This document shows, piece after piece, positions 35,717 to 55,838 of a stretch of DNA of 64,000 bases (within the stretch, counting starts at the first letter, position 1; each line of letters starts with the position of its first letter). This DNA is from a virus. Its lineage: Duplodnaviria > Heunggongvirae > Uroviricota > Caudoviricetes. Under the pieces are notes generated by a model. The model was not told where the DNA came from, made no database searches, and saw nothing but the letters and a program-made list of their open reading frames with translations. Where the stretch lies: the IMG/VR virus record IMGVR_UViG_3300029288_000055, positions 160,001 to 224,000 of that record; one strand, 5' to 3'. A program made the translations under genes and the position numbers.

Positions 35717-35747
35717 TTTGTATTTATGATTTTAATGTATATCTTTG
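35717..35747 (+). promoter_or_regulatory. Promoter of tRNA cluster 1 (host TTTG-N19-TATCTTTG with embedded GTATTTAT late motif)
   Basis: TTTG 35717-20, GTATTTAT 35720-27, TATCTTTG 35740-47. Confidence 0.75.
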
Positions 35748-35781
35748 CGAAGAGTTTTTAATAAATGTTATTTGTAAGACG

Positions 35782-35856
35782 ATGAAAAATTTAATAAACA
35801 TAGTACCACAACCCCAACAGCATCCACAAAGTTTGGAATGGGGAAACTATGCTTAA
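35782..35856 (+). CDS. Attenuator leader peptide 1: MKNLINIVPQPQQHPQSLEWGNYA
   Basis: Eight consecutive Pro/Gln/His codons (35806-35829), followed by antiterminator, terminator and Pro/His/Gln tRNAs. Confidence 0.85.
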   Translation: MKNLINIVPQPQQHPQSLEWGNYA

Positions 35857-35887
35857 ATTTTTCACAGGAAAATTTTTTAGGTTAGAC

Positions 35888-35918
35888 AAACCCCATTCAT
35901 ATTGAGTGGGGTTTTTTT
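35888..35918 (+). terminator. Attenuator terminator 1
   Basis: AAACCCCATTCA-tat-TGAGTGGGG then TTTTTTT; the 5' arm can alternatively pair with GAATGGGG at 35836-35843. Confidence 0.88.
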
Positions 35919-35943
35919 ATGGTGTTCGTTGAAATATTTTTAT

Positions 35944-36038
35944 CAGGGTGTGAGCGAGTTGGTTGAAGCTGCTGGTCTTGGAAACCAGTCACGACACAAA
36001 GGTGTTGTCGTGCGTGGGTTCGAACCCCACCACCCTGA
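35944..36038 (+). tRNA. tRNA-Pro(UGG) with long variable arm
   Basis: Acceptor CAGGGTG/CACCCTG with A73; anticodon arm CTGGT-cttggaa-ACCAG; GGTTCGAAC T-loop; about 25-nt variable arm. Confidence 0.8.
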
Positions 36039-36094
36039 CGTTAGAGGATTAACTATATATGACTGTACTTGGGACTGGCAAATTAGTAATATTT

Positions 36095-36170
36095 CGAGTA
36101 GTTGGGGAGTTGGTCACCCCGCCACATTTGGGATGTGGAGAACTCGCAGGTTCGAATCCTGCCTACTCGA
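36095..36170 (+). tRNA. tRNA-Pro(UGG)
   Basis: CGAGTAG/CTACTCG acceptor; CCACA-tttggga-TGTGG. Confidence 0.9.
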
Positions 36171-36172
36171 CT

Positions 36173-36248
36173 GTGCTAAGTGTAGATGTTGGCATTCTTC
36201 ACCTGACTGTGAATCAGGGTTTCGTGGGTTCGATTCCCATTTAGCACC
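36173..36248 (+). tRNA. tRNA-His(GUG), atypical D-arm
   Basis: GTGCTAA/TTAGCAC acceptor with C73; CCTGA-ctgtgaa-TCAGG. Confidence 0.7.
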
Positions 36249-36282
36249 AAAAAGCGTGATAAAAGCGTTTATCACGGAATTA

Positions 36283-36358
36283 CGGGATATAGTTCAGTTG
36301 GTAGAATGGGTGCTTTGGGAGCATCAGGTCGTCAGTTCGAGTCTGGCTATCCCGACCA
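36283..36358 (+). tRNA. tRNA-Pro(UGG)
   Basis: CGGGATA/TATCCCG acceptor; GGTGC-tttggga-GCATC; encoded CCA. Confidence 0.92.
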
Positions 36359-36361
36359 CAT

Positions 36362-36438
36362 GGTGATTGTAGAGGAATTGGTAAACTCGCCTGACTGTGA
36401 ATCAGGTATTTGCGGGTTCGACCCCCGTCCTTCACCCA
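36362..36438 (+). tRNA. tRNA-His(GUG)
   Basis: G-1 present; CCTGA-ctgtgaa-TCAGG; two acceptor mismatches. Confidence 0.8.
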
Positions 36439-36518
36439 GCATCGTTTGGCGAACGATATGAATCGGTTTCTTAATGCCCTGATCGCAGGGTGGCGTATAG
36501 TTGAAGCATCGCCTACAT

Positions 36519-36592
36519 TGCCACATGGCGCAATTGGCTAACGCACCTGACTCTGAATCAGAAGATTGTAGGTTCGACTCCTACTGTGGCAA
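36519..36592 (+). tRNA. tRNA-Gln(CUG)
   Basis: TGCCACA/TGTGGCA acceptor; loop ctctgaa. Confidence 0.9.
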
Positions 36593-36599
36593 CAACAAA

Positions 36600-36704
36600 T
36601 TATACCCGATCAGGACTATGAATTCATATGAAATTTACATAAAATTCTGGGTATTAATGTCTTAGCAAAAACGCTAAAATTACGATAGTCCTGATCGGGT
36701 ATAA
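36600..36704. repeat. Perfect 20-bp inverted repeat flanking a 65-bp AT-rich spacer
   Basis: TTATACCCGATCAGGACTAT (36600-19) / ATAGTCCTGATCGGGTATAA (36685-704). Confidence 0.85.
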
Positions 36705-36716
36705 AATAGTATAAAC

Positions 36717-36800
36717 TGTCCTTTGGCAGAATGGTTATTGCATCGGTCTTTGAAGCCGACACCCCCAACGGGTTTGTAGGTTCGAATCCTACAGGGACAA
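36717..36800 (+). tRNA. tRNA-Gln(UUG) with long variable arm
   Basis: TGTCCTT/AGGGACA acceptor; TCGGT-ctttgaa-GCCGA; ACCC-ccaac-GGGT extra arm. Confidence 0.85.
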
Positions 36801-36848
36801 CTTTTTTAATGTTCTTTGATATTTCATAATTATTATTACCTTTGCAAA

Positions 36849-37625
36849 ATGTATTATGTAGTTCAGGAAAATGTATTCAGGGAAGAAAATTATGACAATT
36901 TAATATTGGCATTGGATAAACTTACCTTACCATATGAAATTGTCAAAGTTAAACCCTTTATTGAAACATTCAGAATACATACCAGAAGAAAAGATATCTT
37001 TCCTTTTGGTTCATTGAAAATGGCAAGAATATCAGCGAAACGTGGCTGGCGACCCGGTTCTCAAATGAATGCTAATCACGATTATTTGGTTTATCGTGAC
37101 TATTATAAAGAAAATCTTTTGAATTATGATTCACACATACAGAAATTTGGTGATGATTTTTTCAGTAAAGAAACGTTCTTTGCACGACCAACACAAGATA
37201 CGAAAGTATTTACAGGAAAGGTCTTTGACATGCAAGAATGGCGAGAATTTGTGGCATATTCTCTTACTAACGGTCATAGTACCTTATTGAATATTGACAC
37301 TGAAATTCAAATATGTTCAGTAAAAAAGATTCAACAAGAGATCAGGTTCTGGATTGTTAAAGGTGAAATTGTTACCGCAAGTCAATATAGACTTGGAAAC
37401 AGATTGGTGCTTAGTGAAAATGTTGATCAGGCAGCTTATGACTACTGTAAGAAAATGGTTGACATATTTCAATTGAACGATGCTTTTGTAATGGATTTAG
37501 CTTTAACTGAAAATGGATATAAAATCATTGAATGTGGTTGCATTAATTGCGCTGGATTTTATAAAGCAAATATGCAGAAACTTTTAATGAAACTTGAAGA
37601 TAGTTTTAATTGTCCTATGGTGTAA
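36849..37625 (+). CDS. ATP-grasp protein (R2K/DUF4343-like)
   Basis: FARP....K.F.G, E.RFWIV.G.IVT.S.Y, FVMDLA....G.KIIE.GC.N.AGFY. Start moved to ATG 36849, just after TACCTTTG at 36837-44. Confidence 0.75.
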   Translation: MYYVVQENVFREENYDNLILALDKLTLPYEIVKVKPFIETFRIHTRRKDIFPFGSLKMARISAKRGWRPGSQMNANHDYLVYRDYYKENLLNYDSHIQKFGDDFFSKETFFARPTQDTKVFTGKVFDMQEWREFVAYSLTNGHSTLLNIDTEIQICSVKKIQQEIRFWIVKGEIVTASQYRLGNRLVLSENVDQAAYDYCKKMVDIFQLNDAFVMDLALTENGYKIIECGCINCAGFYKANMQKLLMKLEDSFNCPMV

Positions 37626-37684
37626 TTGGTTAACACGTTGGATTTTGATTCCAAAGAGTCGGGGTTCGAGTCCCTGTAGGACAA
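37611..37684 (+). tRNA. tRNA-Gln(UUG)
   Basis: TGTCCTA/TAGGACA acceptor; TTGGA-ttttgat-TCCAA; overlaps the last 15 nt of the upstream CDS. Confidence 0.88.
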
Positions 37685-37693
37685 CAAATTTTT

Positions 37694-37852
37694 ATGGTTA
37701 TGAGCAAATTAAGAGTAGGTAATAAACAAAATGCAATTCTAAATGGTGAATGGGCAGGACACATGCGCAAGTGGGGAAAATTCTTCACCGCCAAAATACG
37801 TAGAAATGTAGATAAGAAAATAATAAGAAACGAAATTAAAAATGAGCTATAA
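37694..37852 (+). CDS. Small basic protein (52 aa, MVMSKLRVGNK...GEWAGHMRKWGK)
   Basis: Manually read ORF overlapping the next start. Confidence 0.55.
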   Translation: MVMSKLRVGNKQNAILNGEWAGHMRKWGKFFTAKIRRNVDKKIIRNEIKNEL

Positions 37853-38216
37853 TCTATTCCTTGACGATTTTCGTGAACCAGAAGATGCATTTAATCACAC
37901 AAATAATCAATTATATTTAATTGGTTGGGTTGTTGTTCGTAATTATAATGAATTTGTAAAAGCAATTGAAGAAAAGGGTATTCCTGAAATGATTTCATTT
38001 GATCATGATCTTGCGGATGAACACTATGAATCTTATAAACAATATGGCGAGTATAAAGAAAAGACTGGTTTTCATTGTGCTAAATGGTTTATCAATTATT
38101 GTATTGACAACAAAAAAGAACTTCCAGCAACAATTCTTATACATTCAATGAATCCTGCTGGAAGTGCTAATATTAAATCTTTGTTCGATACTTATAATAA
38201 ATATTTCAGAATTTAA
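37842..38216 (+). CDS. Cyclic-phosphate-processing receiver-like domain protein
   Basis: LFLDD.R.P, VVRNY.EF, ISFDHDL, TG..CAKW, IHSMNPAG. Confidence 0.75.
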   Translation: MSYNLFLDDFREPEDAFNHTNNQLYLIGWVVVRNYNEFVKAIEEKGIPEMISFDHDLADEHYESYKQYGEYKEKTGFHCAKWFINYCIDNKKELPATILIHSMNPAGSANIKSLFDTYNKYFRI

Positions 38217-39212: not shown

Positions 39213-39304
39213 AGTTTCATATATTATATTGCAATAGTATAAATAGCAATATCCGTACCAAAGTTTTTTTAACTTTGCTGTGTATTTATTATAAATTTCA
39301 CATT

Positions 39305-39688
39305 ATGAGCAAACGTGCCACAAAAGAAAGACTTTTCGAAGTTACTGGTAGACTTGATAAAACATTTAAAATAATAAATGAAGAAGTTGCACCTGAAAAT
39401 ATTGCGGTTTCATCACTTGGTGGTGTTGTTGAAAAAACTGATCTTAATGAAGCATCATCAAAATCACCAATTAATTTATATGTATATTTTGCATATAATT
39501 TTCCAAGCAATTTTATTGAAAAAACATGGGCAAATAACCCAAACATAATGGAACATTTGAAAAACAAGTTCAATGGATACTATACCAAATATGGTGCTGA
39601 AGGGGTAATGAACAGATTTTATGTTGAATTAGATATCGAGAATCAAAGAATTTTAGAAGATTGGATATTACATAATTATAGCGGATAA
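39305..39688 (+). CDS. Late protein of the RLFE-motif family
   Basis: MSKRATKERLFEVTGRLDKTFKIINEE; late motif at 39282; start moved to 39305. Confidence 0.7.
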   Translation: MSKRATKERLFEVTGRLDKTFKIINEEVAPENIAVSSLGGVVEKTDLNEASSKSPINLYVYFAYNFPSNFIEKTWANNPNIMEHLKNKFNGYYTKYGAEGVMNRFYVELDIENQRILEDWILHNYSG

Positions 39689-39708: not shown

Positions 39709-40038
39709 ATGAAAACAACAGATAACAAACAAAGACTTTTCGAAGTCTTGGGTAAAATAGACCCAACATTTAAACCAAGTGCACAACTTCTTACCGAATG
39801 GAACTTTGATAAGAAAAAAGGTGAAAACAAAGAAGAAGATAAAGACGAAGATGAAAAAGACAGCAAGAAAAAATTCAACTTCGAAAAAAAAGAAGATAAA
39901 GAATCCAAAAAACATGAGGAAGTTGAAAGTCCTGAAGAAGAAAAAGAAGAACATGAAGATAAAAAAGAATTAAAAGAAGCCGATGCACCTGCAGCAAAAA
40001 AAATACCTGTTAATGCAATAGCTAAAGTTGGTAAATAA
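39709..40038 (+). CDS. Highly charged (K/E/D) protein of the RLFE-motif family
   Basis: MKTTDNKQRLFEVLGKIDPTFKPSAQLLTE. Confidence 0.7.
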   Translation: MKTTDNKQRLFEVLGKIDPTFKPSAQLLTEWNFDKKKGENKEEDKDEDEKDSKKKFNFEKKEDKESKKHEEVESPEEEKEEHEDKKELKEADAPAAKKIPVNAIAKVGK

Positions 40039-40088: not shown

Positions 40089-40118
40089 TTTGTATTTATG
40101 AAAAATTGATTATCTTTG
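40089..40118 (+). promoter_or_regulatory. Promoter of tRNA cluster 2 (TTTG-N18-TATCTTTG with embedded GTATTTAT)
   Basis: Same architecture as 35717-35747. Confidence 0.75.
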
Positions 40119-40152: not shown

Positions 40153-40245
40153 ATGAAAAATTTATTCGACATATTGGTAGCAGTCCTCATGGTGGATGTC
40201 CTATTATGGGCAGCCGAAGAGGATGATCTATGCGTAGTCGGGTAA
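40153..40245 (+). CDS. Attenuator leader peptide 2: MKNLFDILVAVLMVDVLLWAAEEDDLCVVG
   Basis: 22 of 30 residues are L/V/D/A/E/W, matching the downstream tRNAs; the 3' end is the antiterminator strand. Confidence 0.82.
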   Translation: MKNLFDILVAVLMVDVLLWAAEEDDLCVVG

Positions 40246-40282
40246 TACTTTGAATATTACAACCTCCTTTCTTATAAAAAAG

Positions 40283-40316
40283 AAACCCGACTACCCTAAA
40301 TTTAGTCGGGTTTTTT
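40283..40316 (+). terminator. Attenuator terminator 2
   Basis: AAACCCGACTA-ccctaaatt-TAGTCGGG then TTTTTT; the 5' arm pairs 10/10 with GTAGTCGGGT at 40234-43. Confidence 0.88.
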
Positions 40317-40356
40317 GTTTTTAGTGGTTGTAGGTTCTTTGACATGTTGGAATTTT

Positions 40357-40435
40357 GGTGCTGGGGTCTGCTTGGTGTGGACGCATGACTGTCACTCATG
40401 ATATCAGGAGGGTTCGATTCCCTTCAGCACCGCCA
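40357..40435 (+). tRNA. tRNA-Asp(GUC)
   Basis: GGTGCTG/CAGCACC acceptor, G73 and CCA; CATGA-ctgtcac-TCATG. Confidence 0.9.
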
Positions 40436-40544
40436 TTCTCAACCGAAAGCAAGTAGGTTACTGGTGAAGCGGAGATCGTGACTCCAACCTTGATGGTTCG
40501 TTCCTGAGAGGGCATGGTTGCAAAAAACAGTTTGGGGATATTTT

Positions 40545-40617
40545 CGAGGCTGTGGTGTAATGGCTAACATACCTGACTGTCACTCAGGTGTCTGGGGTTC
40601 GAGTCCCCCGGTCTCGG
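40545..40617 (+). tRNA. tRNA-Asp(GUC)
   Basis: CCTGA-ctgtcac-TCAGG; GGTTCGAGTCC T-arm; slightly irregular T/acceptor junction. Confidence 0.82.
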
Positions 40618-40794
40618 CACATTTTTACTGCCAAAGCAGTAAAAAATAAAAATTTGAGGTAAAAAGTATCGTTAATATCACTTTTTTATTTACTTTTACC
40701 GTTTTGGCAGTAAAAAACGACTATTTGTTAAGAAATAATAATTTGTTTCAAATAAAGTGCATTATTTTGCACTAAATAAATTAATAAAGTATTT

Positions 40795-41397
40795 ATGAAT
40801 ATGAATGAAAATATTATATATGGTTTAAAAGACCCAAGGACTGATGAATATAAGTATGTTGGTAAATCAATAAAAGGAATCGAAAGAGCAAACTCACACT
40901 TAACACATTCTCATAATCCATTGGTTAATGAGTGGATTAATGAACTTAAAATGGATAGTTATGTTCCACTTGTTGTTATTTTGGAAAATGTTTCTGATTG
41001 GACACAATTGATCGATAAAGAAAAATATTGGGTCGGGAAATTAACCGATGAAGAACACGATTTATTTAACATTTTAATTACAGATTCATATAACAATACG
41101 CTGGATTCCTATAATAAGAAATTGATACAACAAATAAAAGATAGGGAAAAAGTGTTAAATGAAAAGTTAAATAAATCATTAATGCAATTCGGTAGTGAAT
41201 CAGATGTTGGTGATTTAATAAAAAGAAGACGTAAAACTCTAAAAGTAACACAACAACAACTTGCAGATATTTCTGGGGTTGGGTTACGAACAATAAAACT
41301 AATTGAATTAAACAAATCAAATGCGACTATTAATACTTTAATGAAAATATTTGATACTTTAGGTTATGAACTTTTCATTAACTTAAAAACAAAATAA
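40795..41397 (+). CDS. GIY-YIG-like endonuclease fused to a C-terminal XRE HTH
   Basis: IYGLKDPR...YKYVGKS...RA..H...E..W; C-terminal RR..L.VTQQQLA..SGV...TI..IE. Confidence 0.7.
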   Translation: MNMNENIIYGLKDPRTDEYKYVGKSIKGIERANSHLTHSHNPLVNEWINELKMDSYVPLVVILENVSDWTQLIDKEKYWVGKLTDEEHDLFNILITDSYNNTLDSYNKKLIQQIKDREKVLNEKLNKSLMQFGSESDVGDLIKRRRKTLKVTQQQLADISGVGLRTIKLIELNKSNATINTLMKIFDTLGYELFINLKTK

Positions 41398-41400
41398 TAT

Positions 41401-41483
41401 GCTGCGTTATACAAGCGACTAAAGTAGACAGACCTTCAATCTGTCATCGAAAGATTTCGTGGGTTTGAATCCCACACGCAGTA
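41401..41483 (+). tRNA. tRNA-Glu(UUC), C33, long variable arm
   Basis: GCTGCGT/ACGCAGT acceptor; ACAGA-ccttcaa-TCTGT; T-loop TTTGAAT. Confidence 0.7.
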
Positions 41484-41580
41484 CGATGTTGAGGTGGTAT
41501 TACACGGGGAAAAGAAAGTCCCTGCTGATAATCTAAAAAATGTGGACAGCATGTGGGTATAAATCCCGCCAACTACACCT

Positions 41581-41652
41581 GCTCGATTCTTCTAATGGAA
41601 AGGAAAGCTGACTCTCAATCAGTTAACGGCAGTTCGATTCTGCCATCGAGTA
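41581..41652 (+). tRNA. tRNA-Glu(CUC)
   Basis: GCTCGAT/ATCGAGT acceptor; GCTGA-ctctcaa-TCAGT. Confidence 0.88.
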
Positions 41653-41657
41653 CAAAT

Positions 41658-41732
41658 GCTCGGTTCGTCTAAGGGTTAGGATGTAAGACCTTCAATCTTA
41701 AAATACGGGTTCGATTCCCGTACCGAGTACCA
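41658..41732 (+). tRNA. tRNA-Glu(UUC), C33
   Basis: GCTCGGT/ACCGAGT acceptor with ACCA; TAAGA-ccttcaa-TCTTA. Confidence 0.88.
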
Positions 41733-41847
41733 AAATGGGGCATAAAAACCCCAGATGTTAAGTAAATGGGGAAAATATGCCCCATACTACAAAAATGTAG
41801 TATATTATCAACAAAAATGCCAGTTATGATGATAATATACAACAAAT

Positions 41848-41936
41848 GCACTTTTAGCTCAGTCTGGTTCAGAGCGCAACCCTTACAAGGTTGAGGCGAA
41901 TAGTTCACGGGGGTTCGAATCCCTCAAAGTGCACCA
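41848..41936 (+). tRNA. tRNA-Val(UAC) with extended variable region
   Basis: GCACTTT/AAAGTGC acceptor with ACCA; CAACC-cttacaa-GGTTG. Confidence 0.88.
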
Positions 41937-41938
41937 AT

Positions 41939-42014
41939 GCTCTTTTAGCTCAGTTGGGTCAGTAGCGTCTGTTTTACAAGCAGAAGGTCGTAGGTTCGAA
42001 GCCTACAGGGAGCA
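41939..42014 (+). tRNA. tRNA-Val(UAC)
   Basis: GCTCTTT/AGGGAGC acceptor; TCTGT-tttacaa-GCAGA. Confidence 0.88.
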
Positions 42015-42126
42015 CAAAGGTCCGCACACAGGGGCGGACCTTAAATATAGGTAAAATAACCGATATAATGCATTTATCGGTTGTAGAGGCGATAAAGAGT
42101 ATTTATCGTGTGTAGAATGCATAAAC

Positions 42127-42208
42127 GTCCATATGTTGTAATTGGTAGCCAAGCTGGTCTAAGAAGCCAGTGCCGTAAGGCGTGTCGGTTCGACTCCGAC
42201 TATGGACA
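42127..42208 (+). tRNA. tRNA-Leu(AAG)
   Basis: GTCCATA/TATGGAC acceptor with A73; CTGGT-ctaagaa-GCCAG; long variable arm. Confidence 0.88.
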
Positions 42209-42217
42209 CAACAAAAC

Positions 42218-42292
42218 GCAGGTGTAGCCGAATGGTCAAGAGGCAGCAGTTTTAGAAACTGAAATTTGCGGGTTCGACTCCCGCCACCTGTA
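42218..42292 (+). tRNA. tRNA-Leu(UAG), short variable loop
   Basis: GCAGGTG/CACCTGT acceptor; CAGT-tttagaa-ACTG. Confidence 0.82.
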
Positions 42293-42357
42293 CAAACGTT
42301 CTCTTTGAGTAGTAATATTCATTAAATTTGGTAGCAATATCAAGTAGGGAACACCAA

Positions 42358-42433
42358 GCGGATGTGCTGGAACTGGTATACGGGTTGGCTTCAGACACCA
42401 ATATTAATGAGGGTTCGAGTCCCTTCATCCGCA
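42358..42433 (+). tRNA. tRNA-Leu(CAG), short variable loop
   Basis: GCGGATG/CATCCGC acceptor; TTGGC-ttcagac-ACCAA. Confidence 0.78.
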
Positions 42434-42511
42434 CCGACCTTATTCTGGATAACGAAGCAAATAGTTCCAGACACTCAGTCCTGAAGTCATGGTTCAGGAG
42501 TAAGGACAACT

Positions 42512-42584
42512 GCCCCGTTGACGTAATCGGCAACCGTATCAGTCTTAAAAGCTGAGTTTCACAGTTCGAATCTGTGACGGGGTA
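42512..42584 (+). tRNA. tRNA-Leu(UAA), short variable loop
   Basis: GCCCCGT/ACGGGGT acceptor; TCAGT-cttaaaa-GCTGA. Confidence 0.82.
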
Positions 42585-42588
42585 CAAA

Positions 42589-42789
42589 GGTGAATGCTGT
42601 TACTTATTTGCAGTAGTAACACCACCTGTGCCGAATAACTTGTAGAGAGGAAAGTAGTACTTTTCAATACTTTGTGGATTGCAAATATACATTGGTTGAG
42701 TTATTAAAAAGGCACACACGGGCGTAAGAGTAATTCTCTGTAAGTCGGGTTGATCACCGAAGTAGGTTAAAATCCTACTACGTTCACCA
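42589..42789 (+). ncRNA. Putative ~200-nt structured RNA with tRNA-like acceptor stem and T-arm
   Basis: GGTGAATG/CGTTCACC-A end pairing, AGTAGG-ttaaaat-CCTACT, several internal hairpins; sits between two tRNAs. Confidence 0.5.
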
Positions 42790-42790
42790 C

Positions 42791-42864
42791 GGGGTCGTGG
42801 CTCAATTGGCTAAAGCATCTGCCTTGCACGCAGAGGACTGTGGGTTCGAGTCCCACCGACTCCA
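42791..42864 (+). tRNA. tRNA-Ala(UGC)
   Basis: GGGGTCG/CGACTCC acceptor with G3:U70; TCTGC-cttgcac-GCAGA. Confidence 0.92.
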
Positions 42865-42901
42865 CAAACAAAGGTCCGCAAATATTTGCGGACCTTTACT
42901 T

Positions 42902-42975
42902 GGGGCATTCGCTTAGTTGGCTAAAGCATCTGTTTTGCAAGCAGAAGATCGTGGGTTCAACTCCCACATGCTCCA
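42902..42975 (+). tRNA. tRNA-Ala(UGC)
   Basis: GGGGCAT/ATGCTCC acceptor with G3:U70; TCTGT-tttgcaa-GCAGA. Confidence 0.9.
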
Positions 42976-43092
42976 CACAATCCATAATAATAAGGCAAGT
43001 AACAAATCTTGTGTTCGTGGGAACAACATGTCCGTGCGTGCGCAGGGATAAATTGGTTGATGCTCCAATCGTGCCCACGAAGGGTTGCACTT

Positions 43093-43179
43093 GTAGGTGT
43101 ATTCCGTAATGGCGAAATTGGTTATGTCATCCATGTAACAAGGGTTGGAATGTTAGAGGTTCGAGTCCTTTCATCTACA
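43093..43179 (+). pseudogene. Degenerate tRNA, anticodon not assignable
   Basis: GTAGGTG/CATCTAC acceptor and AGAGG-ttcgagt-CCTTT T-arm; irregular core. Confidence 0.5.
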
Positions 43180-43185
43180 CAAACA

Positions 43186-43264
43186 ACGGATTTAACATAG
43201 TGGCAAGTGTTGCACCTTAAGTCCTGCGTGGCTGGTAACGGTGGTTCGATTCCATCAATCTGTT
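43186..43264 (+). pseudogene. Degenerate tRNA (possibly Leu-derived)
   Basis: ACGGATT/AATCTGT acceptor, GGTGG-ttcgatt-CCATC T-arm; broken anticodon stem around CTTAAG. Confidence 0.45.
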
Positions 43265-43273
43265 GTTAAAAAT

Positions 43274-43356
43274 ACGCAAGTTGCCGAGTGGTTAAAGGCA
43301 CGGGTCTCCAAAACCCGCAGAGAAATCTTTCGTGGGTCCAAATCCTACCTTGCGTG
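43274..43356 (+). tRNA. tRNA-Trp(CCA) with long variable arm
   Basis: ACGCAAG/CTTGCGT acceptor with G73; CGGGT-ctccaaa-ACCCG; atypical T-loop. Confidence 0.72.
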
Positions 43357-43367
43357 CAAATTAAAAT

Positions 43368-43439
43368 GCGTCTGTCGTCTAATGGCTAAGACAACGGCTT
43401 CCAAACCCGTGAATAAGGTTTCGATTACTTTCAGACGTG
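43368..43439 (+). tRNA. tRNA-Trp(CCA)
   Basis: GCGTCTG/CAGACGT acceptor with G73; ACGGC-ttccaaa-CCCGT (one mismatch). Confidence 0.7.
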
Positions 43440-43490
43440 CTAAAATCAGATAATTATGAAAACGCAAAAAGCAATGTGCATCCTAAAAGG

Positions 43491-46982: not shown

Positions 46983-47346
46983 GGGGATGACTTGGCTTTG
47001 ACTGAATGGTCAGACTGGTAACGTAAGCAAGTAGTAGTTGAATCAGACTACTTTAAAAAGGTTCAAAACAATAGATGAAGACATAATGTCTATCCCAACT
47101 TCTCTCACGAGAGGTAAAAGCGTTTTTGTAAGAAGTGCAGAACTTCAAATCGCTGCGTAAGCAAGGGACACGAAAAAATTTGCACAAAAGTTCCTAACTT
47201 GAAGGGAAGGTAAACAAATTCAAGACAGTTTTGTAGTTATTCTGGAATAATACAACTAATATTTCGCTGGCTTAGAAAAACCAGATAAACTTGTAGAAAA
47301 CTTATTACTCGCATTCAAGACGGGGGTTCAACTCCCCCCATCTCCA
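46983..47346 (+). ncRNA. ssrA: tmRNA
   Basis: 5' GGGGATGACTTGGCTTTGAC and 3' GACGGGGGTTCAACTCCCCCCATCTCCA; acceptor GGGGATG/CATCTCC with G3:U70; internal tag frame ends ...ELQIAA* at 47160. Confidence 0.9.
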
Positions 47347-47361
47347 CTAATTTGAATTATT

Positions 47362-47784
47362 ATGGAAAATTATAATTGGGAAAAAACTGGTATGTTAGAA
47401 GGATTAACGGGTAATACTCGTGAAACCGTTATAAAACTTTTTAAAGAAATTGACTTCAAATCAATACCAGAAATTAAAGATTCTGTTGGTGTAGACACAC
47501 TCATTTGTCCAGTAATAAGACGAATAGTTTCAGTAATCACGCCTGATAATTTACTGGTTCAAAACAGTATCATTAAAGATCATTCAAGAGAAATTACAGA
47601 AGAAGACGTGCTTCCATTGATTGATGTAAAAGAAATAACAGAACTATTGATTGAATATGTTCGTGTTTTTATTCCATACGCAGAAAAATATTTACCAGAC
47701 CTTGACGCACAAGCGGAAATGTGCTTATTGTTTTGTGATAATTATGTAATGAAACTGATTGGTAGAACTGGAAAATGGAAATAA
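47362..47784 (+). CDS. Protein resembling the N-terminus of the major capsid protein
   Basis: WEKTGMLEGL.GN.RE....LF...T...PVIRRI versus MCP WEKIGLLEGL.GN.KE....LF...T...PVIRRV. Confidence 0.7.
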   Translation: MENYNWEKTGMLEGLTGNTRETVIKLFKEIDFKSIPEIKDSVGVDTLICPVIRRIVSVITPDNLLVQNSIIKDHSREITEEDVLPLIDVKEITELLIEYVRVFIPYAEKYLPDLDAQAEMCLLFCDNYVMKLIGRTGKWK

Positions 47785-47786
47785 TT

Positions 47787-48217
47787 ATGAAAGAGAATCA
47801 ATATCAAAAATCAGAAAGATTACTTAAAAAATGGTTTGATTCTGATGATGCTAAAATCTATTTTGAAAAAGAACGAAAAAACAAGAGTTTAAGCTCAAAC
47901 GTTTTGCTCGTTTTGAAAAGTGGCTGGAAAATAATGATTTTGAAGCACTAATGTATCGTTTAATTCTTGAACATGGTGAAAATTATCGTGAAAAATGTTA
48001 TCATAAAGGTTATGAACCATACCCAAACAATAAATTATCATTTCTTATTGATTATGTATCAGAAAGTCTTGAACCAATAAGTGTACCACAACTTGAAAAT
48101 ATGTTTGGAACAAGTATTTGGTTTTTTAAAGGATATTATTTTAGGCTTATGTACGGACAGGGAACTGTTTTTGATTTATATAATGGTGGCGATTTTAAAC
48201 ATTTATTAAGCGCATGA
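47787..48217 (+). CDS. Hypothetical protein split over two frames (47787-47951 and 47951-48217)
   Basis: The -1 frame is open from A_AAA_AAC at 47876-82 into the second ORF; alternatively two TAATG-coupled genes. Confidence 0.5.
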
Positions 48218-48522
48218 CAACTTACAATAAACTGGTTAGAGACAAGATACTTAAAATAATTAAAAAGTCTGGTTCAGGTTATAAGTATCATATAGCAAAA
48301 GACGACACAGAATTTCTTGAAAAACTTTATGAAAAACTTCAGGAAGAAATTACTGAATTTAAAGAAAAACCAAGTGTAGATGAATTTGTAGATATGTTAG
48401 AAGTATTGGAAGCTATAGCAAAATATTATAAATTTAAATTGAATGATATTAAAACTATAAAAACCAAGAAAAAAATAGATCGTGGTGGATTTAATAACAG
48501 AATAATACTTGAAGAATCATGA
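48214..48522 (+). CDS. All-alpha NTP pyrophosphohydrolase (MazG / PRA-PH-like)
   Basis: YNKLVRDKI, KL.EE..EF, E..D.LEV, K...RGGF. Confidence 0.8.
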   Translation: MTTYNKLVRDKILKIIKKSGSGYKYHIAKDDTEFLEKLYEKLQEEITEFKEKPSVDEFVDMLEVLEAIAKYYKFKLNDIKTIKTKKKIDRGGFNNRIILEES

Positions 48523-48680
48523 CAACAACAGAAAAAATTATTACCGTAGTACTTGAAGAAGTAAATGGCTACACTAAAGAAGAAGCAGAAAAATATGCAA
48601 AAGATTGTGAAGGAAGTATTACGTGGGAAAGAATTGATGCAATTGTAAATAAAGCAATTAAGGAAGCAAAAAAGAAATAA
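48519..48680 (+). CDS. Hypothetical 53-aa protein
   Basis: Manually read ORF with ATGA overlap. Confidence 0.55.
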   Translation: MTTTEKIITVVLEEVNGYTKEEAEKYAKDCEGSITWERIDAIVNKAIKEAKKK

Positions 48681-48684
48681 CAAT

Positions 48685-48770
48685 GGCGTAGTGATGGAAC
48701 TGGTAGACATGTAGGTCTTAAAAACCTATGGGCAGTAATGTCCGTGTGGGTTCGACTCCCATCTTCGCTA
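48685..48770 (+). tRNA. tRNA-Leu(UAA)
   Basis: TAGGT-cttaaaa-ACCTA; long variable arm; canonical D and T arms. Confidence 0.9.
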
Positions 48771-48792
48771 CTATTTATATAAAAATAAAATC

Positions 48793-49062
48793 ATGAAAAA
48801 ATCAAGCATACCTATTGATATTCTTTATGAAGAATGTCTTAAAGCAGTAAGAAAAGAAATTCGAAAGGATTGCTATCAGGAAGCAAAAGAAATTATTCGA
48901 TTGGCTTCGGATGAAGATCGTAAAGAATTTCTTAAATATTTCAAAGAAGACAAAGGCAATATTTGTTGTTTAGTTCTTGATAGAATAAAACGTGATCTAA
49001 TTACTGCAGGAAAACTTGAAGCAAATGATAATGATAATTTCGGTAAACCACTTATGTTATGA
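48793..49062 (+). CDS. Hypothetical protein
   Basis: ORF track. Confidence 0.6.
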   Translation: MKKSSIPIDILYEECLKAVRKEIRKDCYQEAKEIIRLASDEDRKEFLKYFKEDKGNICCLVLDRIKRDLITAGKLEANDNDNFGKPLML

Positions 49063-49253
49063 GTATATTGTTTAGAAATTGGCTGGAAGAAGGATATTAT
49101 GAAGAAGATTCTTGGGGTAATCTAACACGAATAGAAGACCCTGACAGAATTTTTCAGGCACAAAAAGAAGGAACACTATATCATAATGATGGTATGGCAA
49201 CCACTCAAGTATATTTGGGTGATAAACTTGATTTAAATGGCGAAAGTGATTAA
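49059..49253 (+). CDS. Hypothetical protein
   Basis: ATGA overlap. Confidence 0.6.
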   Translation: MSILFRNWLEEGYYEEDSWGNLTRIEDPDRIFQAQKEGTLYHNDGMATTQVYLGDKLDLNGESD

Positions 49254-49366
49254 GGGTAAAAAGCCAATACCGCAAGAAGATGATTGTCATTGTGGCAACC
49301 CTCTTAGAGTAAATGACCCTGCAAGAAAAAAAATTATCAGGGTCATAAAGAAAAAATGATTTACCC

Positions 49367-49448
49367 CCTCATGTGGTGGAACTGGTAGACACGCACGCCT
49401 CAAAAGCGTGTGCCGTAAGGCATGTCGGTTCGAGTCCGACCATGAGGA
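49367..49448 (+). tRNA. tRNA-Leu(CAA)
   Basis: CCTCATG/CATGAGG acceptor; CACGC-ctcaaaa-GCGTG; long variable arm. Confidence 0.92.
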
Positions 49449-49543
49449 CAATTGAATAATTATGAGTATTTATTTAAAACTGTAAACTATGAAAAGACCT
49501 TGGATGTATTTCTTGTAACTTGCTCTAATGCGAGTACAAGAAA

Positions 49544-49840
49544 ATGAAAGCAAAATCAATTGAACAAACATCCACAAATCGTGGAGAATTTAATCGTGCA
49601 TACAAGCACTATTTAGAAAAAAAAGGCAAGATTCACTGTTCATATTGTGCTTATCACCGTTGTGAAAACGGTTGCGGGACAAAAATGTACGGTAGTATTG
49701 GTAGTGAAAGAATGAGATATCCTAACTGGAAACTTGTTTCAAAGCAACCAAAACAGTGGATGGAAAAACCCATCAAAAAAAGAGTTAAATATTATGGTGG
49801 GTATCAAAGAACATATGTTGAGATTACATTCTCAACATAA
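49544..49840 (+). CDS. Small basic protein with CxxC..H.C motif
   Basis: HCSYCAYHRC and YPNWKLVSK..KQWM. Confidence 0.65.
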   Translation: MKAKSIEQTSTNRGEFNRAYKHYLEKKGKIHCSYCAYHRCENGCGTKMYGSIGSERMRYPNWKLVSKQPKQWMEKPIKKRVKYYGGYQRTYVEITFST

Positions 49841-49843
49841 TAT

Positions 49844-49915
49844 TGCGACTTGGTATAATGGTTAGAACGTCTCTCTCATAAGGAGCAGATACCGGTTCGA
49901 TTCTGGTAGTCGCAA
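49844..49915 (+). tRNA. tRNA with CAU anticodon (Met, or Ile if lysidine-modified)
   Basis: TGCGACT/AGTCGCA acceptor; loop ctcataa. Confidence 0.8.
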
Positions 49916-49916
49916 C

Positions 49917-51276: not shown

Positions 51277-52295
51277 AAGAAAAAAACGGCTTATTAATTA
51301 ATGAAAATTACTGGCGTAATATGTCGCCAATGGAATTAGAAAATTTTGCTCAGAAAATTTTTATACATTACAGAGAAAATGGTTTTCCTTATTATCCAAC
51401 AGATATTGAAATAAGACAAAAAGATTTTGAGCAGTTAATGAATTATGATTTCAAAGCGTTATTTGAAAATAATATAATAAAGCAATCGATGCATGGTCTT
51501 GGACTTGCGTGGTCATATTTTCCACACTCATTCAATGTCAGGTCAAATGATAAAATGACTCCATATGAAGCATTTATGGATGATGAAATTTTCATAAAAG
51601 TCATCAAAAAACGTTTACAGATGGGTACATATATATCAGACTCTGGCATAAGAAAGATGTTGAAAATATTTACGGGCGTACAGGGAGTATCGAATTTCAG
51701 ACCAACAGCAGCAGCATGCATTTATAATACGTTTGCTAAAGACGGTGTAGTTTGGGATATGTCAGGTGGTTGGGGTGGAAGATTGCTGGGGGCAATTGCT
51801 GGTGGGGTTCAGAACTATATTACGACTGAACCTTCAGAGTTAACACATAAAGGCTTGACAGAAATGGCTTATTGTTTTTGTCCCAAAGGCATGGATTACA
51901 TGATCTTGAAAATGGGAAGTGAAGTATTTAGACCAGACAAGAACAGCTTAGATTTGTGTTTCACATCACCGCCATATTTTGATCTTGAAAAATATAGTGA
52001 AGAACCTTCACAGAGCTATATCAAATTTAATACGAAAGATACATGGGTTGAAGGATTTTTGAGACCAACATTTAAAAATTCTTATTATGGATTAAAACAA
52101 GGTGGATATATGTTGATTAATATTGCTGATGTAAAAGGCAAACACAATGTTAATTTGGAATGGGAAACTATTATAACTGCAGAAAGTATTGGTTTTACAC
52201 ATGAAAACACGCTTCAATTAGCACTTTCAAATGTAAATTTGCGTGATAAAGGAAAGAAGTTTAAGTATGAACCTATTTATGTATTTAAGAAATGA
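51273..52295 (+). CDS. DNA amino-methyltransferase (N4-C / N6-A type)
   Basis: WDMSGGWGGRLLG (motif I) then FTSPPYF (motif IV), LKQGG. Confidence 0.85.
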   Translation: MKEKNGLLINENYWRNMSPMELENFAQKIFIHYRENGFPYYPTDIEIRQKDFEQLMNYDFKALFENNIIKQSMHGLGLAWSYFPHSFNVRSNDKMTPYEAFMDDEIFIKVIKKRLQMGTYISDSGIRKMLKIFTGVQGVSNFRPTAAACIYNTFAKDGVVWDMSGGWGGRLLGAIAGGVQNYITTEPSELTHKGLTEMAYCFCPKGMDYMILKMGSEVFRPDKNSLDLCFTSPPYFDLEKYSEEPSQSYIKFNTKDTWVEGFLRPTFKNSYYGLKQGGYMLINIADVKGKHNVNLEWETIITAESIGFTHENTLQLALSNVNLRDKGKKFKYEPIYVFKK

Positions 52296-53377
52296 AAATG
52301 TTAGAAAAAATTGATTGGAAGGTTCTCTGCACATATGTAGAAAATAGCCTCATTATTGCAAACAAACATCCAGAATTGGATATTTGGATACTTAATTATT
52401 CTCCAAAAGTTCAGTCAAAAAAGTTCTGGGATGAATATACCTTATCTTGTCGTGGATTGGTAATTGATGCTGAAGGTAACATCTTAGCTCGTCCATTCGA
52501 AAAGTTCATGAATTACGAAGAATATGACCCATCAGAAATTGACTGGTCAAAGGACTTTGATGTATTCGAAAAAATGGATGGTTCATTGATTATTATATTT
52601 TATTATGAACCAAGAATGAAATGGATAGTAGCTTCCAGAGGGTCATTTATTTCTGAACAAGCACTTGAAGCACAAAAAATGATTACAGTTACAGATTATG
52701 GCAAACTGGATATTGAATACACATATCTATTTGAAGCAATTTATCCAGAAAACCGAATCGTTGTTAATTATGGTAATAGAAGAGAACTTGTGTTACTTAC
52801 CAAAATTAATACAAATACTGGTGCTGAAATAAATAACGATGAATTGGTTAACAAGTATTCAAAGCATTTTACAGTTGTGAAGAAATTTCAACTTAAATCA
52901 TTTGATGAATTAAAACAATTAATAAAAAATGGTGAAGATAATAGTGAAGGTTTTGTTATTAGATTCTCTGATGGCTTAAGATTAAAAATGAAATTTGCTG
53001 AATACTGCAGATTGCATGCAATATTAACAAATGTTTCTAATTTAACTGTTTGGGAACATTTGATAAATAATTATGATTTTGATGCATTATATGACAGAGT
53101 TCCAGATGAATTTTACAACTGGCTAAAAAGAACAATAAAAGCAATACAGTCAGAATTCAATGAGATCGAAAGAAAAGCATTGAAAGAATTCATTAGAATT
53201 TACTATGTAAATGGAATTACTGTTCGTAAGGATTTCGCAATGGAAGCGATAAAAACAGAATACCAGTCAATATTATTTAAATTGTACGACAAAAGATCAT
53301 ATGATGAAATCATTTGGAAATTAGTGCGACCAGTTTACAGTAAGCCGTTTCGAGACGGTTTTGAATATAGCATATAA
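52292..53377 (+). CDS. RNA ligase, T4 Rnl1-like
   Basis: CRGLV, ARPF.KF.N, EKMDGSL (adenylated Lys), SRGSF, FE.I.PENRIVV.Y, EGFV, K.K..EY. Confidence 0.9.
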   Translation: MKMLEKIDWKVLCTYVENSLIIANKHPELDIWILNYSPKVQSKKFWDEYTLSCRGLVIDAEGNILARPFEKFMNYEEYDPSEIDWSKDFDVFEKMDGSLIIIFYYEPRMKWIVASRGSFISEQALEAQKMITVTDYGKLDIEYTYLFEAIYPENRIVVNYGNRRELVLLTKINTNTGAEINNDELVNKYSKHFTVVKKFQLKSFDELKQLIKNGEDNSEGFVIRFSDGLRLKMKFAEYCRLHAILTNVSNLTVWEHLINNYDFDALYDRVPDEFYNWLKRTIKAIQSEFNEIERKALKEFIRIYYVNGITVRKDFAMEAIKTEYQSILFKLYDKRSYDEIIWKLVRPVYSKPFRDGFEYSI

Positions 53378-53403: not shown

Positions 53404-53428
53404 ATGTATTTATATGAAATATTGATTA

Positions 53429-54757
53429 ATGAACATCATTGACATTATAAAAGAAGAAATTGAACAATTTGATTGGGGTAAAGAAAAAGTTGCAGATAGA
53501 CCAATAAAACCAAATGAATTTATTTATCATAGTTCTGATATAAATAACAGAGAAGGCATATTGCGCAATGGATTAGAACTTAGAACGGGTGATAATTATT
53601 TAGGATATGTTGGTCGAGAAAAAAAAGCAATACCTGCGATTTTTGCAACGGCAACATATAATGATGTAACTGGCGGTATGCCCAATACCCCTGAAGATAT
53701 TTGGGAAATTAATACTCGAAAAATAGATAATGAATGGTTTGCGGATAAACATTTTTCTGATTTTGGTTTACCAAATAATCCACATATGGTAACATTTAAA
53801 AACATTCCAGCAAATGCATTAAAATTAGTTCATAAAGGATATGATTATATGGCACAATTAAGGCAAAAACAAAATATGGATGAAGATATTACTTCTCAGT
53901 ATATACATTTGCAAAGATGCCAAACAGGTGAAGTAAATAATGTCTGGGATTTTAATGTTGTAAATGGTCAAAACGGTGAAGGCATATACGCATTTCTTGC
54001 TGGCGACAAACCAATGAAAGATTATTACTGTAAAAATGGTGAGAATATTCATTCATTTAAAATCGAAAAAAAATATATAAAAGACTTATCAAACCTTAAA
54101 TTAGATTATTGGGATGTTAAAAAATTTATTTATAATAATTCACAATATAAAGCATTTATTTTTAAGCATGTGGGACATGGAATACCATCTTCAAAAGAAG
54201 TATTAATAACCGACCCCAAAATAATTATATTGGATAATTCAGACATAATGAACGAAGAATATAATCACACTAATTATTTAAAGTGGAAAAGACAAAACGT
54301 AACCCTAAGAGGGGTGCGTAATAATGTCGGTACACCTAATAGCGAAGATGATGAAGGAAATTTCTTAACCGCCTTTGGTGATGTACTTGGTAAAGGATTA
54401 TATACTGCAGCTTTAAGCAATAAAGGAATGGCAAAACAATATGGTAAAGTATATTATGTACTAAATGCCATACCCAAACATCCGATGGTTTTTAATACTT
54501 TAAATGATTGGCAAATCTGGTTTGGCAATACACTTGTGGGTGATTTTACAAAACAACGGGGTGCAAATTATCCAGACAAACGAATTTTTAATGCCGAAAC
54601 AACCATTGAAAAAGAAATGATGAAGCGTAGTTATGACGGAATTATAATAAGAGGAAGAGAAATGGTTAATTTTACGCCACCAGATAACGTACTGTATTTC
54701 AGCACTGAACAAGAACTAATGAATTATTATGAAATCGTAATTGAAAATAATGTGTAA
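53429..54757 (+). CDS. Late multidomain protein with putative ADP-ribosyltransferase-fold domains
   Basis: IIKEE N-terminus; three blocks YHSS...ILRNGL...IFAT, QR...GEGIYAF...EVLI and LRG...GKGLYT...YDGIII.G.EMV. Confidence 0.55.
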   Translation: MNIIDIIKEEIEQFDWGKEKVADRPIKPNEFIYHSSDINNREGILRNGLELRTGDNYLGYVGREKKAIPAIFATATYNDVTGGMPNTPEDIWEINTRKIDNEWFADKHFSDFGLPNNPHMVTFKNIPANALKLVHKGYDYMAQLRQKQNMDEDITSQYIHLQRCQTGEVNNVWDFNVVNGQNGEGIYAFLAGDKPMKDYYCKNGENIHSFKIEKKYIKDLSNLKLDYWDVKKFIYNNSQYKAFIFKHVGHGIPSSKEVLITDPKIIILDNSDIMNEEYNHTNYLKWKRQNVTLRGVRNNVGTPNSEDDEGNFLTAFGDVLGKGLYTAALSNKGMAKQYGKVYYVLNAIPKHPMVFNTLNDWQIWFGNTLVGDFTKQRGANYPDKRIFNAETTIEKEMMKRSYDGIIIRGREMVNFTPPDNVLYFSTEQELMNYYEIVIENNV

Positions 54758-54773
54758 AATAAATGTAATTTTA

Positions 54774-54805
54774 TTTGGAAATGTCGTATTTATAAAATAC
54801 ATTTG
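54774..54805 (+). promoter_or_regulatory. Promoter of tRNA cluster 3 (TTTG-N20-TACATTTG with embedded GTATTTATA)
   Basis: TTTG 54774-77, GTATTTATA 54786-94, TACATTTG 54798-805. Confidence 0.75.
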
Positions 54806-54843
54806 TCATCTGAATTTTTAAGAAACAAATAAAGAATAAAGCA

Positions 54844-54936
54844 ATGAGAACATTTGGTACATATTATTACGGTAAAAAATCTTATAAGAAACAGCTTATA
54901 GGAATCGGGAATACTATGACCAAAGGTAAAATATAA
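54844..54936 (+). CDS. Attenuator leader peptide 3: MRTFGTYYYGKKSYKKQLIGIGNTMTKGKI
   Basis: 8 of 10 codons at 54862-54891 are Tyr/Lys; followed by antiterminator, terminator and Lys/Tyr tRNAs. Confidence 0.85.
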   Translation: MRTFGTYYYGKKSYKKQLIGIGNTMTKGKI

Positions 54937-54965
54937 CTTTCGTACTTTTTTTCATAATTAAGACT

Positions 54966-54992
54966 AACCCGATTCGCAAGATCGGGTTTTTT
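54966..54992 (+). terminator. Attenuator terminator 3
   Basis: AACCCGAT-tcgcaag-ATCGGG then TTTTTT; CCCGATTC pairs 8/8 with GAATCGGG at 54902-09. Confidence 0.85.
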
Positions 54993-55132
54993 GTTTTGCA
55001 TAAAAACGTATATTGTTGCATAAAAACTCTTAGAATATGAAAAACAGGTATAAAAAGGCATATTTCATGAAAAACGTTTATTACCCGTGAAAAACGTTTA
55101 AAAAACAGTATGTTTCATGAAAAACGGGTTTT

Positions 55133-55205
55133 GCGCTCGTAACTCAGTTGGTAGAGTAACGGACCTTTAATCCGTGAGTCGTGGGTTCGACCCCCACCGG
55201 GCGCA
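55133..55205 (+). tRNA. tRNA-Lys(UUU), C33
   Basis: GCGCTCG/CGGGCGC acceptor; ACGGA-cctttaa-TCCGT. Confidence 0.9.
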
Positions 55206-55262
55206 CTTAAGGTATAGTTTAGGTATTTTCTGTATCCATATTAACTGAAATATCCACAAGTT

Positions 55263-55333
55263 GTACCCGTAGCAAAGGGGATATGCCCTTGGCTTTTAAC
55301 CAAGTGACGTAGGTTCGATTCCTACCGGGTACA
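55263..55333 (+). tRNA. tRNA-Lys(UUU)
   Basis: GTACCCG/CGGGTAC acceptor; CTTGG-cttttaa-CCAAG. Confidence 0.85.
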
Positions 55334-55339
55334 CAAATT

Positions 55340-55420
55340 GGGTACGTTGAGCAATTGGTTGGCTCGCCTGACTGTAGATCAGGTTCTTCGGACGTAGGGG
55401 TTCGAGTCCCTTCGTACCCA
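55340..55420 (+). tRNA. tRNA-Tyr(GUA)
   Basis: GGGTACG/CGTACCC acceptor; CCTGA-ctgtaga-TCAGG; variable arm. Confidence 0.9.
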
Positions 55421-55426
55421 CAAATA

Positions 55427-55502
55427 GACTCCGTAGCTTAATTGGTGAAGCTGCACTCCCTTAAAGTGAGGATTATGGGTTCGAGTCCCATCGGGGTCAC
55501 CA
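55427..55502 (+). tRNA. tRNA-Lys(CUU), C33
   Basis: GACTCCG/CGGGGTC acceptor with ACCA; CACT-cccttaa-AGTG. Confidence 0.82.
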
Positions 55503-55513
55503 AATTTTTTATT

Positions 55514-55750
55514 ATGGAAACAATTAAAACAATTGTAAACGGAACACAAGCAACTTTAAGCCACGTATGTAATGGCAAAGCATGCTATAAAATTATGACT
55601 GCAGATCACATATATCAACTTGAAATCAATTTGATGGATTCTGAATGGAAGGATGTATACGTATATCCTGAATACAAGACGATTACCTTAATGCGTTGGA
55701 TACGCAAGGGCATCGAGAATGATGACGGTTCATTCATTATGATGAAATAA
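55514..55750 (+). CDS. Hypothetical 78-aa protein inside the Lys/Tyr tRNA operon
   Basis: ATG 55514 (the track start overlaps a tRNA). Confidence 0.65.
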   Translation: METIKTIVNGTQATLSHVCNGKACYKIMTADHIYQLEINLMDSEWKDVYVYPEYKTITLMRWIRKGIENDDGSFIMMK

Positions 55751-55756
55751 TATGCT

Positions 55757-55838
55757 GGGTAGGATGGTAAGTGGGCGAAATCAATGGTCTGTAAAACCCC
55801 CGCCTTTGGCTATGCAGGTTCGAATCCTGCCCTACCCA
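55757..55838 (+). tRNA. tRNA-Tyr(GUA)
   Basis: GGGTAGG/CCTACCC acceptor; loop ctgtaaa; weak anticodon stem; variable arm. Confidence 0.75.

Follow-up and report, generated by a model that had tools for sequence, protein, structure and literature searches.

Codon-matched leaders and candidate attenuators upstream of the tRNA blocks of a T4-like jumbo phage

When a 64,000-nucleotide (nt) window of contig C1 (C1:160001-224000, within a 38-contig assembly) was analyzed, three blocks of transfer RNA (tRNA) genes were found, each preceded by a short leader open reading frame (ORF) and an intrinsic terminator. The whole contig has 362,763 bp, 30.5% G+C, 55 tRNA genes and one transfer-messenger RNA (tmRNA) gene. 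It is a T4-like jumbo phage contig whose bin also contains a small prokaryote genome; the window includes a capsid gene of the T4 gp23 type. The tRNA blocks are very probably under ribosome-mediated transcription attenuation that acts as a tRNA-supply feedback loop, and each block is most likely made only during slow reading of its codons. The initial annotation of the window had read the blocks as attenuation-type feedback, and this reading was supported by a fourth unit outside the window, by covariation of leader and cargo across phages and by folding.

Leader units and their codon match

In the window, each unit was found to be ordered as promoter, leader of 24-30 codons, antiterminator, G+C hairpin with U-tract, and tRNA block (Table 1). 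Boxes matching TAnnTTTG, the Bacteroidota -7 box consensus (PMC6847099), were present 42-46 nt 5' of the leaders, at 35740, 40111 and 54798. The start context of the leaders was A-rich with no Shine-Dalgarno sequence, resembling that of the phage's own genes. The antiterminator segments were 8, 10 and 8 nt long in units 1, 2 and 3, respectively, with every nucleotide complementary to the 5' arm of the terminator. The promoter, leader, antiterminator, hairpin and tRNA block of each unit had been described in the initial annotation and were present as described. The genes downstream of the leaders were tRNAs, the tmRNA and small proteins, and not biosynthetic enzymes or aminoacyl-tRNA synthetases.

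The control region was taken to start at codon 2 and to run up to the antiterminator strand. Pro, Gln and His accounted for 8/17 control codons in leader 1 (binomial p 3e-5 vs genome composition; nucleotide-shuffle p 0.0016). The amino acids Asp, Glu, Val, Leu, Ala, Trp and Met accounted for 21/26 in leader 2 (p 2e-6 and p 0.0002 by the same two tests), and Tyr and Lys for 8/18 in leader 3 (p 1e-3 and p 0.005, respectively). The earlier claim that leader composition matches the cargo therefore held for each unit, and the reported use of both codons for isoacceptor pairs was found for CAA+CAG, GAA+GAG and AAA+AAG.

A leader had also been predicted ahead of Thr/Cys/Asn/Ile/Ser/Phe/Gly/Arg tRNAs. 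Such a leader was found 2 kb past the window, before a block of tRNAs for these eight amino acids, and 26/32 of its control codons were cognate to the block. A detector run over the entire contig returned 46 terminator-like hairpins; promoter, small ORF and antiterminator occurred together at only four loci, all of them 21-147 nt 5' of a tRNA block.

Because no + strand terminator was found between 40310 and 53380, the block 2 transcript probably extends to 49916 and takes in the tmRNA, Leu(TAA), Leu(CAA) and Met(CAT); Met tRNAs were located within block 2 in two related genomes (G001 and G011). With Met assigned to block 2, the four units split the 20 amino acids as 3 + 7 + 2 + 8. A readable codon was present in the own leader for 33/35 anticodons, compared to 27.5 after resampling of synonymous codons by genome usage (p 0.002). 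Distinct cognate codons in the leaders numbered 43, compared to 34.6 +/- 2.4 expected from genome usage. Part of this synonymous-codon excess may serve RNA pairing. The true assignment of leaders to blocks ranked first of 24 in 5/5 near-complete genomes. Partition of the blocks by first codon letter was considered as a general rule and rejected: it fits the C1 phage (p 0.02) and Cellulophaga phage phi4:1 (p 0.002) and fails in G023 and LR745206.

Table 1. Features of the four leader units and adjoining genes (window positions unless marked C1)
Feature	Position	Strand	Remarks
Unit 1 promoter, Bacteroidota-type -7 box TAnnTTTG	35740..35747	+	kept in 13 loci
Leader 1, 24 codons (24 aa)	35782..35856	+	Pro/Gln/His control run 35806-35829
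Unit 1 antiterminator 5' strand (region 2)	35836..35843	+	complement of 35891-98; also pairs with control codons (1:2 hairpin)
Unit 1 intrinsic terminator (regions 3:4 and U-tract)	35891..35918	+	
tRNA block 1	35944..37685	+	Pro x3, His x2, Gln x3; R2K ATP-grasp gene 36816-37625 within
cREC cyclic-phosphate-processing receiver gene	37842..38216	+	end of block 1; same place in relatives
Unit 2 promoter, -7 box	40111..40118	+	
Leader 2, 30 codons (30 aa)	40153..40245	+	Asp/Glu/Val/Leu/Ala/Trp/Met control region
Unit 2 antiterminator 5' strand (region 2)	40234..40243	+	10/10 complementary to 40285-40294
Unit 2 intrinsic terminator	40286..40316	+	
boxA-like word 3' of terminator 2	40334..40345	+	in 9/11 unit-2 loci
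tRNA block 2 core	40357..43440	+	Asp x2, Glu x3, Val x2, Leu x4, Ala x2, Trp x2
Probable distal block 2: tmRNA, Leu(TAA), Leu(CAA), Met(CAT)	46983..49916	+	probable co-transcription
T4 Rnl1-like RNA ligase	52292..53377	+	PF09511, E 8e-21; kept beside Lys/Tyr unit
Unit 3 promoter, -7 box	54798..54805	+	
Leader 3, 30 codons (30 aa)	54844..54936	+	Tyr/Lys control run, codons 7-16
Unit 3 antiterminator 5' strand (region 2)	54902..54909	+	complement of 54968-75
Unit 3 intrinsic terminator	54968..54992	+	
tRNA block 3	55133..55839	+	Lys x3, Tyr x2
Leader 4, 44 codons	C1:226051-226185		-7 box and 12-nt antiterminator

Conservation, covariation and natural swaps

Related loci were retrieved via neighboring proteins, and 53 leaders of four types were curated. 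Conservation of the leaders extended to about 30 related phage contigs, among which the switch showed compensatory changes. The control runs remained in frame across relatives though their length varied. In all four groups the nucleotides of region 2 were kept while the reading frame of the surrounding tail shifted between phages, which fits an RNA element inside a disposable peptide. Cognate duplexes between regions 2 and 3 outscored cross-locus duplexes in the four groups (p 0.03, 5e-5, 0.04 and <5e-5).

Across 31 units, the mean cognate share of control codons was 0.695 compared to 0.379 +/- 0.028 when permuted, a value never equaled in 20,000 shuffles; 212/223 cargo amino acids were present in their own leader, and each amino acid was individually associated (p 0.03 to 5e-7). 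In the 19 non-redundant units, the share was 0.714 compared to 0.396 permuted. When the other frames were read, the share was 0.38 (+1), 0.33 (+2) and 0.39 (reverse strand), and the ORF frame was top in 31/31 units. Nine units retrieved after the statistic had been fixed, six from LR745206.1 (GenBank) and three from the cultured phage phi4:1, served as a held-out set and gave 0.61 compared to 0.24 +/- 0.06 permuted.

The initial annotation had expected leader composition to covary with tRNA content among phages, and this was observed through swaps, splits and mergers of the units. In G001, a Trp tRNA heads block 4, and a Trp codon was gained by leader 4 and lost from leader 2; three Met(CAT) tRNAs lie in block 2, whose leader has two internal Met codons. 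In G011, block 4 was divided into two units, each with a matched leader, and G023 contained two new units. A peptide-blind scan for the terminator tail and the boxA-like word retrieved phages with other tRNA partitions. In L205, Arg joins both the Pro/Gln/His block and its leader; L212 is a Ser/Thr/Cys/Arg/Leu unit and L216 a Cys/Val/Leu unit, both with matching leaders. In L203, only Thr and Gly are missing from the control region of an 18-amino-acid leader, and the tRNAs for these two are found upstream of the leader. A single all-amino-acid leader precedes a whole single array in L199, L202 and L088, and the same design was found in phages with sigma70-type promoters (L089 and L254). In G002, leader 3 has decayed (L035:9330-9720), with the start codon and control run lost, an early stop and a mismatched terminator. 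A single Tyr tRNA remains nearby, and Lys tRNAs were not found at L035:9330-9720; judged from these remnants, unit 3 of G002 appears to be a natural loss of the sensor along with its cargo.

The three phi4:1 leaders lie at 87065-87133, 88025-88108 and 89771-89869 of KC821632.1, and only one of them is annotated in GenBank, as a hypothetical protein. Leaders were not found at the tRNA arrays of G022, G024, L061, L251, L252, LR756511 and LR756508, nor at those of Flavobacterium phage immuto, crAss001, PAU, pT24 and the T5-like STG2, some of these regions being covered in part. The leader design is thus common and not universal among phage tRNA arrays. A single, narrow pattern scan across GTDB genomes returned 5 matches and 0 chromosomal tRNA arrays with a leader, a result that does not imply absence. 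Lone Met, Asn, Thr or Tyr tRNAs were observed directly after a -7 box, leaderless, in L109, L112, L113 and L256; such lone tRNAs of related genomes appear to be expressed ungated.

Folding, mechanism and alternative explanations

The proposed check by folding gave mutually exclusive antiterminator and terminator structures whose pairing covaries. In models of the nascent RNA 3' of the ribosome, the antiterminator was preformed at all control-region A-site positions (median 0.80-1.00). The ribosome edge met region 2 at codons 17, 26, 18 and 32 of leaders 1-4, respectively, immediately past the last control codon; the antiterminator drop after that point is built into the model. In full transcripts of units 1-3, the terminator was at 0.96-1.00 when the leader was untranslated or the ribosome was at the stop codon, and at 0.08-0.19 at the best stall positions. 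The folding models support a switch set by the ribosome, with the exception of the off state of leader 4.

We infer that the leaders are translated and that read-through is regulated in vivo. Host RNA polymerase would initiate at the Bacteroidota-type promoter and a ribosome would load onto the leader. With charged cognate tRNAs plentiful, the ribosome would cover region 2 near the leader 3' end, so that the terminator would fold and transcription would stop before the first tRNA. At a slow control-region codon, the ribosome would lag, region 2 would pair with the terminator 5' arm and polymerase would read through into the tRNA genes. The molecule sensed would be the output, closing a negative-feedback loop, and the four leaders would jointly poll 20/20 amino acids and 33/35 encoded anticodons. 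The underlying logic is that of a polymerase-ribosome race settled by cognate codons (PMC1183508), and for a Bacteroidota host leader-peptide attenuation has been described as probable (PMC9723704).

Several points weigh against this interpretation. Full-transcript equilibrium often favored the terminator even with the ribosome on control codons (group medians 0.58-0.93 vs 0.90-1.00 at the stop codon); the switch must therefore be partly kinetic, and folding order must matter. In models that allow pairing around the ribosome, the antiterminator of C1 leader 4 prevailed even when a ribosome occupied the stop codon, so its off state would require steric or kinetic help. In nascent snapshots, the 1:2 pause hairpin, which in known attenuators synchronizes polymerase and ribosome, was clear in leaders 1 and 3, weak in leader 2 and absent in leader 4; that of leader 2 was predicted on the full transcript only. 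The units are not phylogenetically independent, so the p values overstate the number of events, and the natural swaps are a stronger argument than the p values. The leader ORF was picked from several candidates according to where it starts and how far it lies from the promoter, a choice that the frame control and the held-out set answer in part. The assignment of the host, presumed from sequence features, is indirect.

The same switch could instead be a general gauge of translation that responds to antibiotics, ribosome scarcity or infection stage, the codon match being incidental or historical. Any stall 5' of region 2 would open the gate, several untranslated leaders fold to the antiterminator, some phages place one all-amino-acid leader before an entire array, and the Anabaena trn operon answers general translational stress (PMC10272220). 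A gauge of this kind requires no matching, yet leader composition follows the cargo through swaps, splits and mergers, and synonymous codons and anticodons are sampled above genome usage; we regard it as very unlikely. Even less probable is an action of the leaders as peptides, either by nascent-chain arrest as in TnaC and ErmCL or as trans-acting small proteins, with the hairpins as plain terminators. Short amino-acid motifs are indeed kept within each leader group, but leader sequences vary freely among the cargo amino acids, the tails change frame with region 2 retained, region 2 covaries with the terminator arm, and the same logic recurs in unrelated phages whose peptides are unrelated.

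In A+T-rich phage DNA, small ORFs and terminators occur often, the leaders are short, and blocks 2 and 4 span 7-8 amino acids each, so that partial matches are easy and a match might be chosen post hoc. Against such a coincidence, unit 4 was predicted and then found, only four such sites exist on the contig, and the permutation and frame tests and the conservation with compensatory changes point the same way. Chance was refuted by the held-out units, and we give it almost no credence.

Opening of the tRNA blocks by slow decoding could serve more than one purpose. We lean slightly toward a main purpose of replacing tRNAs that host anticodon nucleases or RNA decay remove during infection; otherwise, the units would serve phage codon demand or a starved host. 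Loss of tRNA or demand is more sensible than starvation because extra tRNA cannot remedy a lack of amino acids. The switch would sense slow decoding from any cause, and host tRNA nucleases, demand or starvation may each be the natural trigger. The Escherichia coli defenses PARIS AriB and retron PtuAB attack Lys and Tyr tRNAs, a loss that phage tRNAs can rescue (PMC11464382, PMC11555353). The separate Lys/Tyr unit, the adjoining Rnl1-type ligase and the cREC gene by unit 1 favor the nuclease-loss purpose circumstantially. In relatives, the ligase was kept beside unit 3 and cREC beside unit 1.

Neighboring features and relation to known systems

The closest cultured relative of the capsid is that of a Flavobacterium phage (42%), and together with the TAnnTTTG promoters and the A-rich starts lacking a Shine-Dalgarno sequence it suggests a Bacteroidota host. 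The bS21 gene was absent from the C1 phage and four related genomes, giving no link to the bS21-encoding phage group. A tRNA with a CTA (amber) anticodon was found at L001:15313-15385 (C1:237313), outside any leader unit, and likewise in G001, G003, G004, G005, G007 and G011. TAG serves as a stop codon; TAG recoding was ruled out, with 13/231 long ORFs terminating in TAG.

Within the units, the R2K ATP-grasp and cREC genes would be co-induced with block 1, and the block 2 transcript would include the tmRNA and a helix-turn-helix gene (40795-41397). An N-terminal motif is common to three small proteins encoded 5' of units 1 and 2 (35018-35680, 39305-39688 and 39709-40038). The 7-mer GTATTTA was found at 35720-35726, 40092-40098 and 54786-54792, and at fixed offsets (-20, -12 or +12) from the -7 box in 53/53 curated leader promoters. 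It showed no genome-wide enrichment, and a likeness to a T4 late promoter was seen on its opposite strand; a regulator site and an antisense late promoter shutting the tRNA operons are two possible roles. A helix enclosing terminator 2 (40255-40335), with strands 5' of the terminator and 3' of the U-tract, was predicted in most unit-2 loci with differing sequences; its formation would require read-through, and it may be a processing stem like those of ribosomal RNA (rRNA) operons. Terminator 2 is also bracketed by an anti-Shine-Dalgarno-like pyrimidine word (40263-40272) and the boxA-like word. We take these words to resemble the 16S 3' end and the spacer boxA of Bacteroidota rRNA operons, a likeness that suggests Nus-type antitermination of the long block 2. 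A tRNA-like gene with an 8-base anticodon loop (43185-43265) was observed between the Ala and Trp tRNAs, and also in L002 and L004; it is possibly a frameshift suppressor or a decayed Leu tRNA.

The reason for large phage tRNA sets has been open for >50 years (PMC10264068). With a codon-specific gate on each block, these tRNAs would be on-demand replacements and not constant codon-bias fillers. Gating would explain the sorting of tRNAs into blocks, and the question becomes open to experiment: the stimulus that opens a block during infection is itself the pressure to which the block responds. On balance, we favor by a small degree a broader picture in which phages of several host phyla carry a self-sensing tRNA homeostat, whose multivalent attenuators tile the whole code and transcribe only the block whose decoding failed. 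If true, the homeostat would be an inducible, target-specific counter-defense that senses host anticodon nucleases via their effect on the ribosome, and the phage tRNA partition would be a readable record of tRNAs failing together in the host. In Bacteroidota, the leaders would serve as ready-made sensors of tRNA loss in vivo. The design also occurs in Cellulophaga phage phi4:1, which is in culture together with its host, Cellulophaga baltica.

Full-text literature searches that covered few subscription papers found no description of tRNA genes controlled by leader-peptide attenuation. The phage units have the structural layout of the trp, his and thr attenuators but precede tRNA genes and not a biosynthesis or synthetase operon. 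With trpL, hisL, leuL, pheL and the multivalent thrL, ilvL and ivbL, they have in common a promoter, a short leader of regulatory codons, exclusive antiterminator and terminator structures and, by prediction, read-through upon slow decoding (PMC1183508); synonymous codon choice matters in both. In contrast to the biosynthesis attenuators, the phage units would control tRNAs, so that the sensed molecule would be the product. One phage leader would poll up to 8 (C1) or all 20 amino acids, the parallel units tile the whole code, region 2 is located within the ORF, as much as 24 nt 5' of the stop codon, and the element is viral.

The E. coli pheST operon, with its pheM leader, is an aminoacyl-tRNA synthetase operon with an attenuator. 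As proposed for the phage units, it uses leader-peptide attenuation to feed back on charged-tRNA supply, but its target is the charging enzyme of a single amino acid, whereas the phage units would control tRNA genes. T-box riboswitches, marked by a stem I with specifier loop and by the T-box motif in the antiterminator bulge, likewise choose between terminator and antiterminator by tRNA charging. They bind uncharged tRNA directly, without translation, whereas the phage signal rides on an in-frame ORF; no Rfam family scored over threshold on any leader, and no T-box match was found at gathering or E-value thresholds. The Anabaena trn operon (TrcR, PMC10272220) resembles the phage units in that an accessory tRNA array is off until translational stress, and differs in being one array controlled at initiation by a DNA-binding repressor of the RHH type, independent of codons. 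The tRNA regions of T5-like phages include, as here, Lys and Tyr tRNAs, which are able to replace defense-cut host tRNAs and counter PARIS and retron PtuAB (PMC11464382, PMC11555353). Those tRNAs are expressed from a strong promoter in an account that makes no mention of a leader or attenuator (PMC11464382/PMC11555353), and none was detected in STG2. The phage units would bring a familiar mechanism to a new type of target and extend attenuation from amino-acid supply to tRNA supply.

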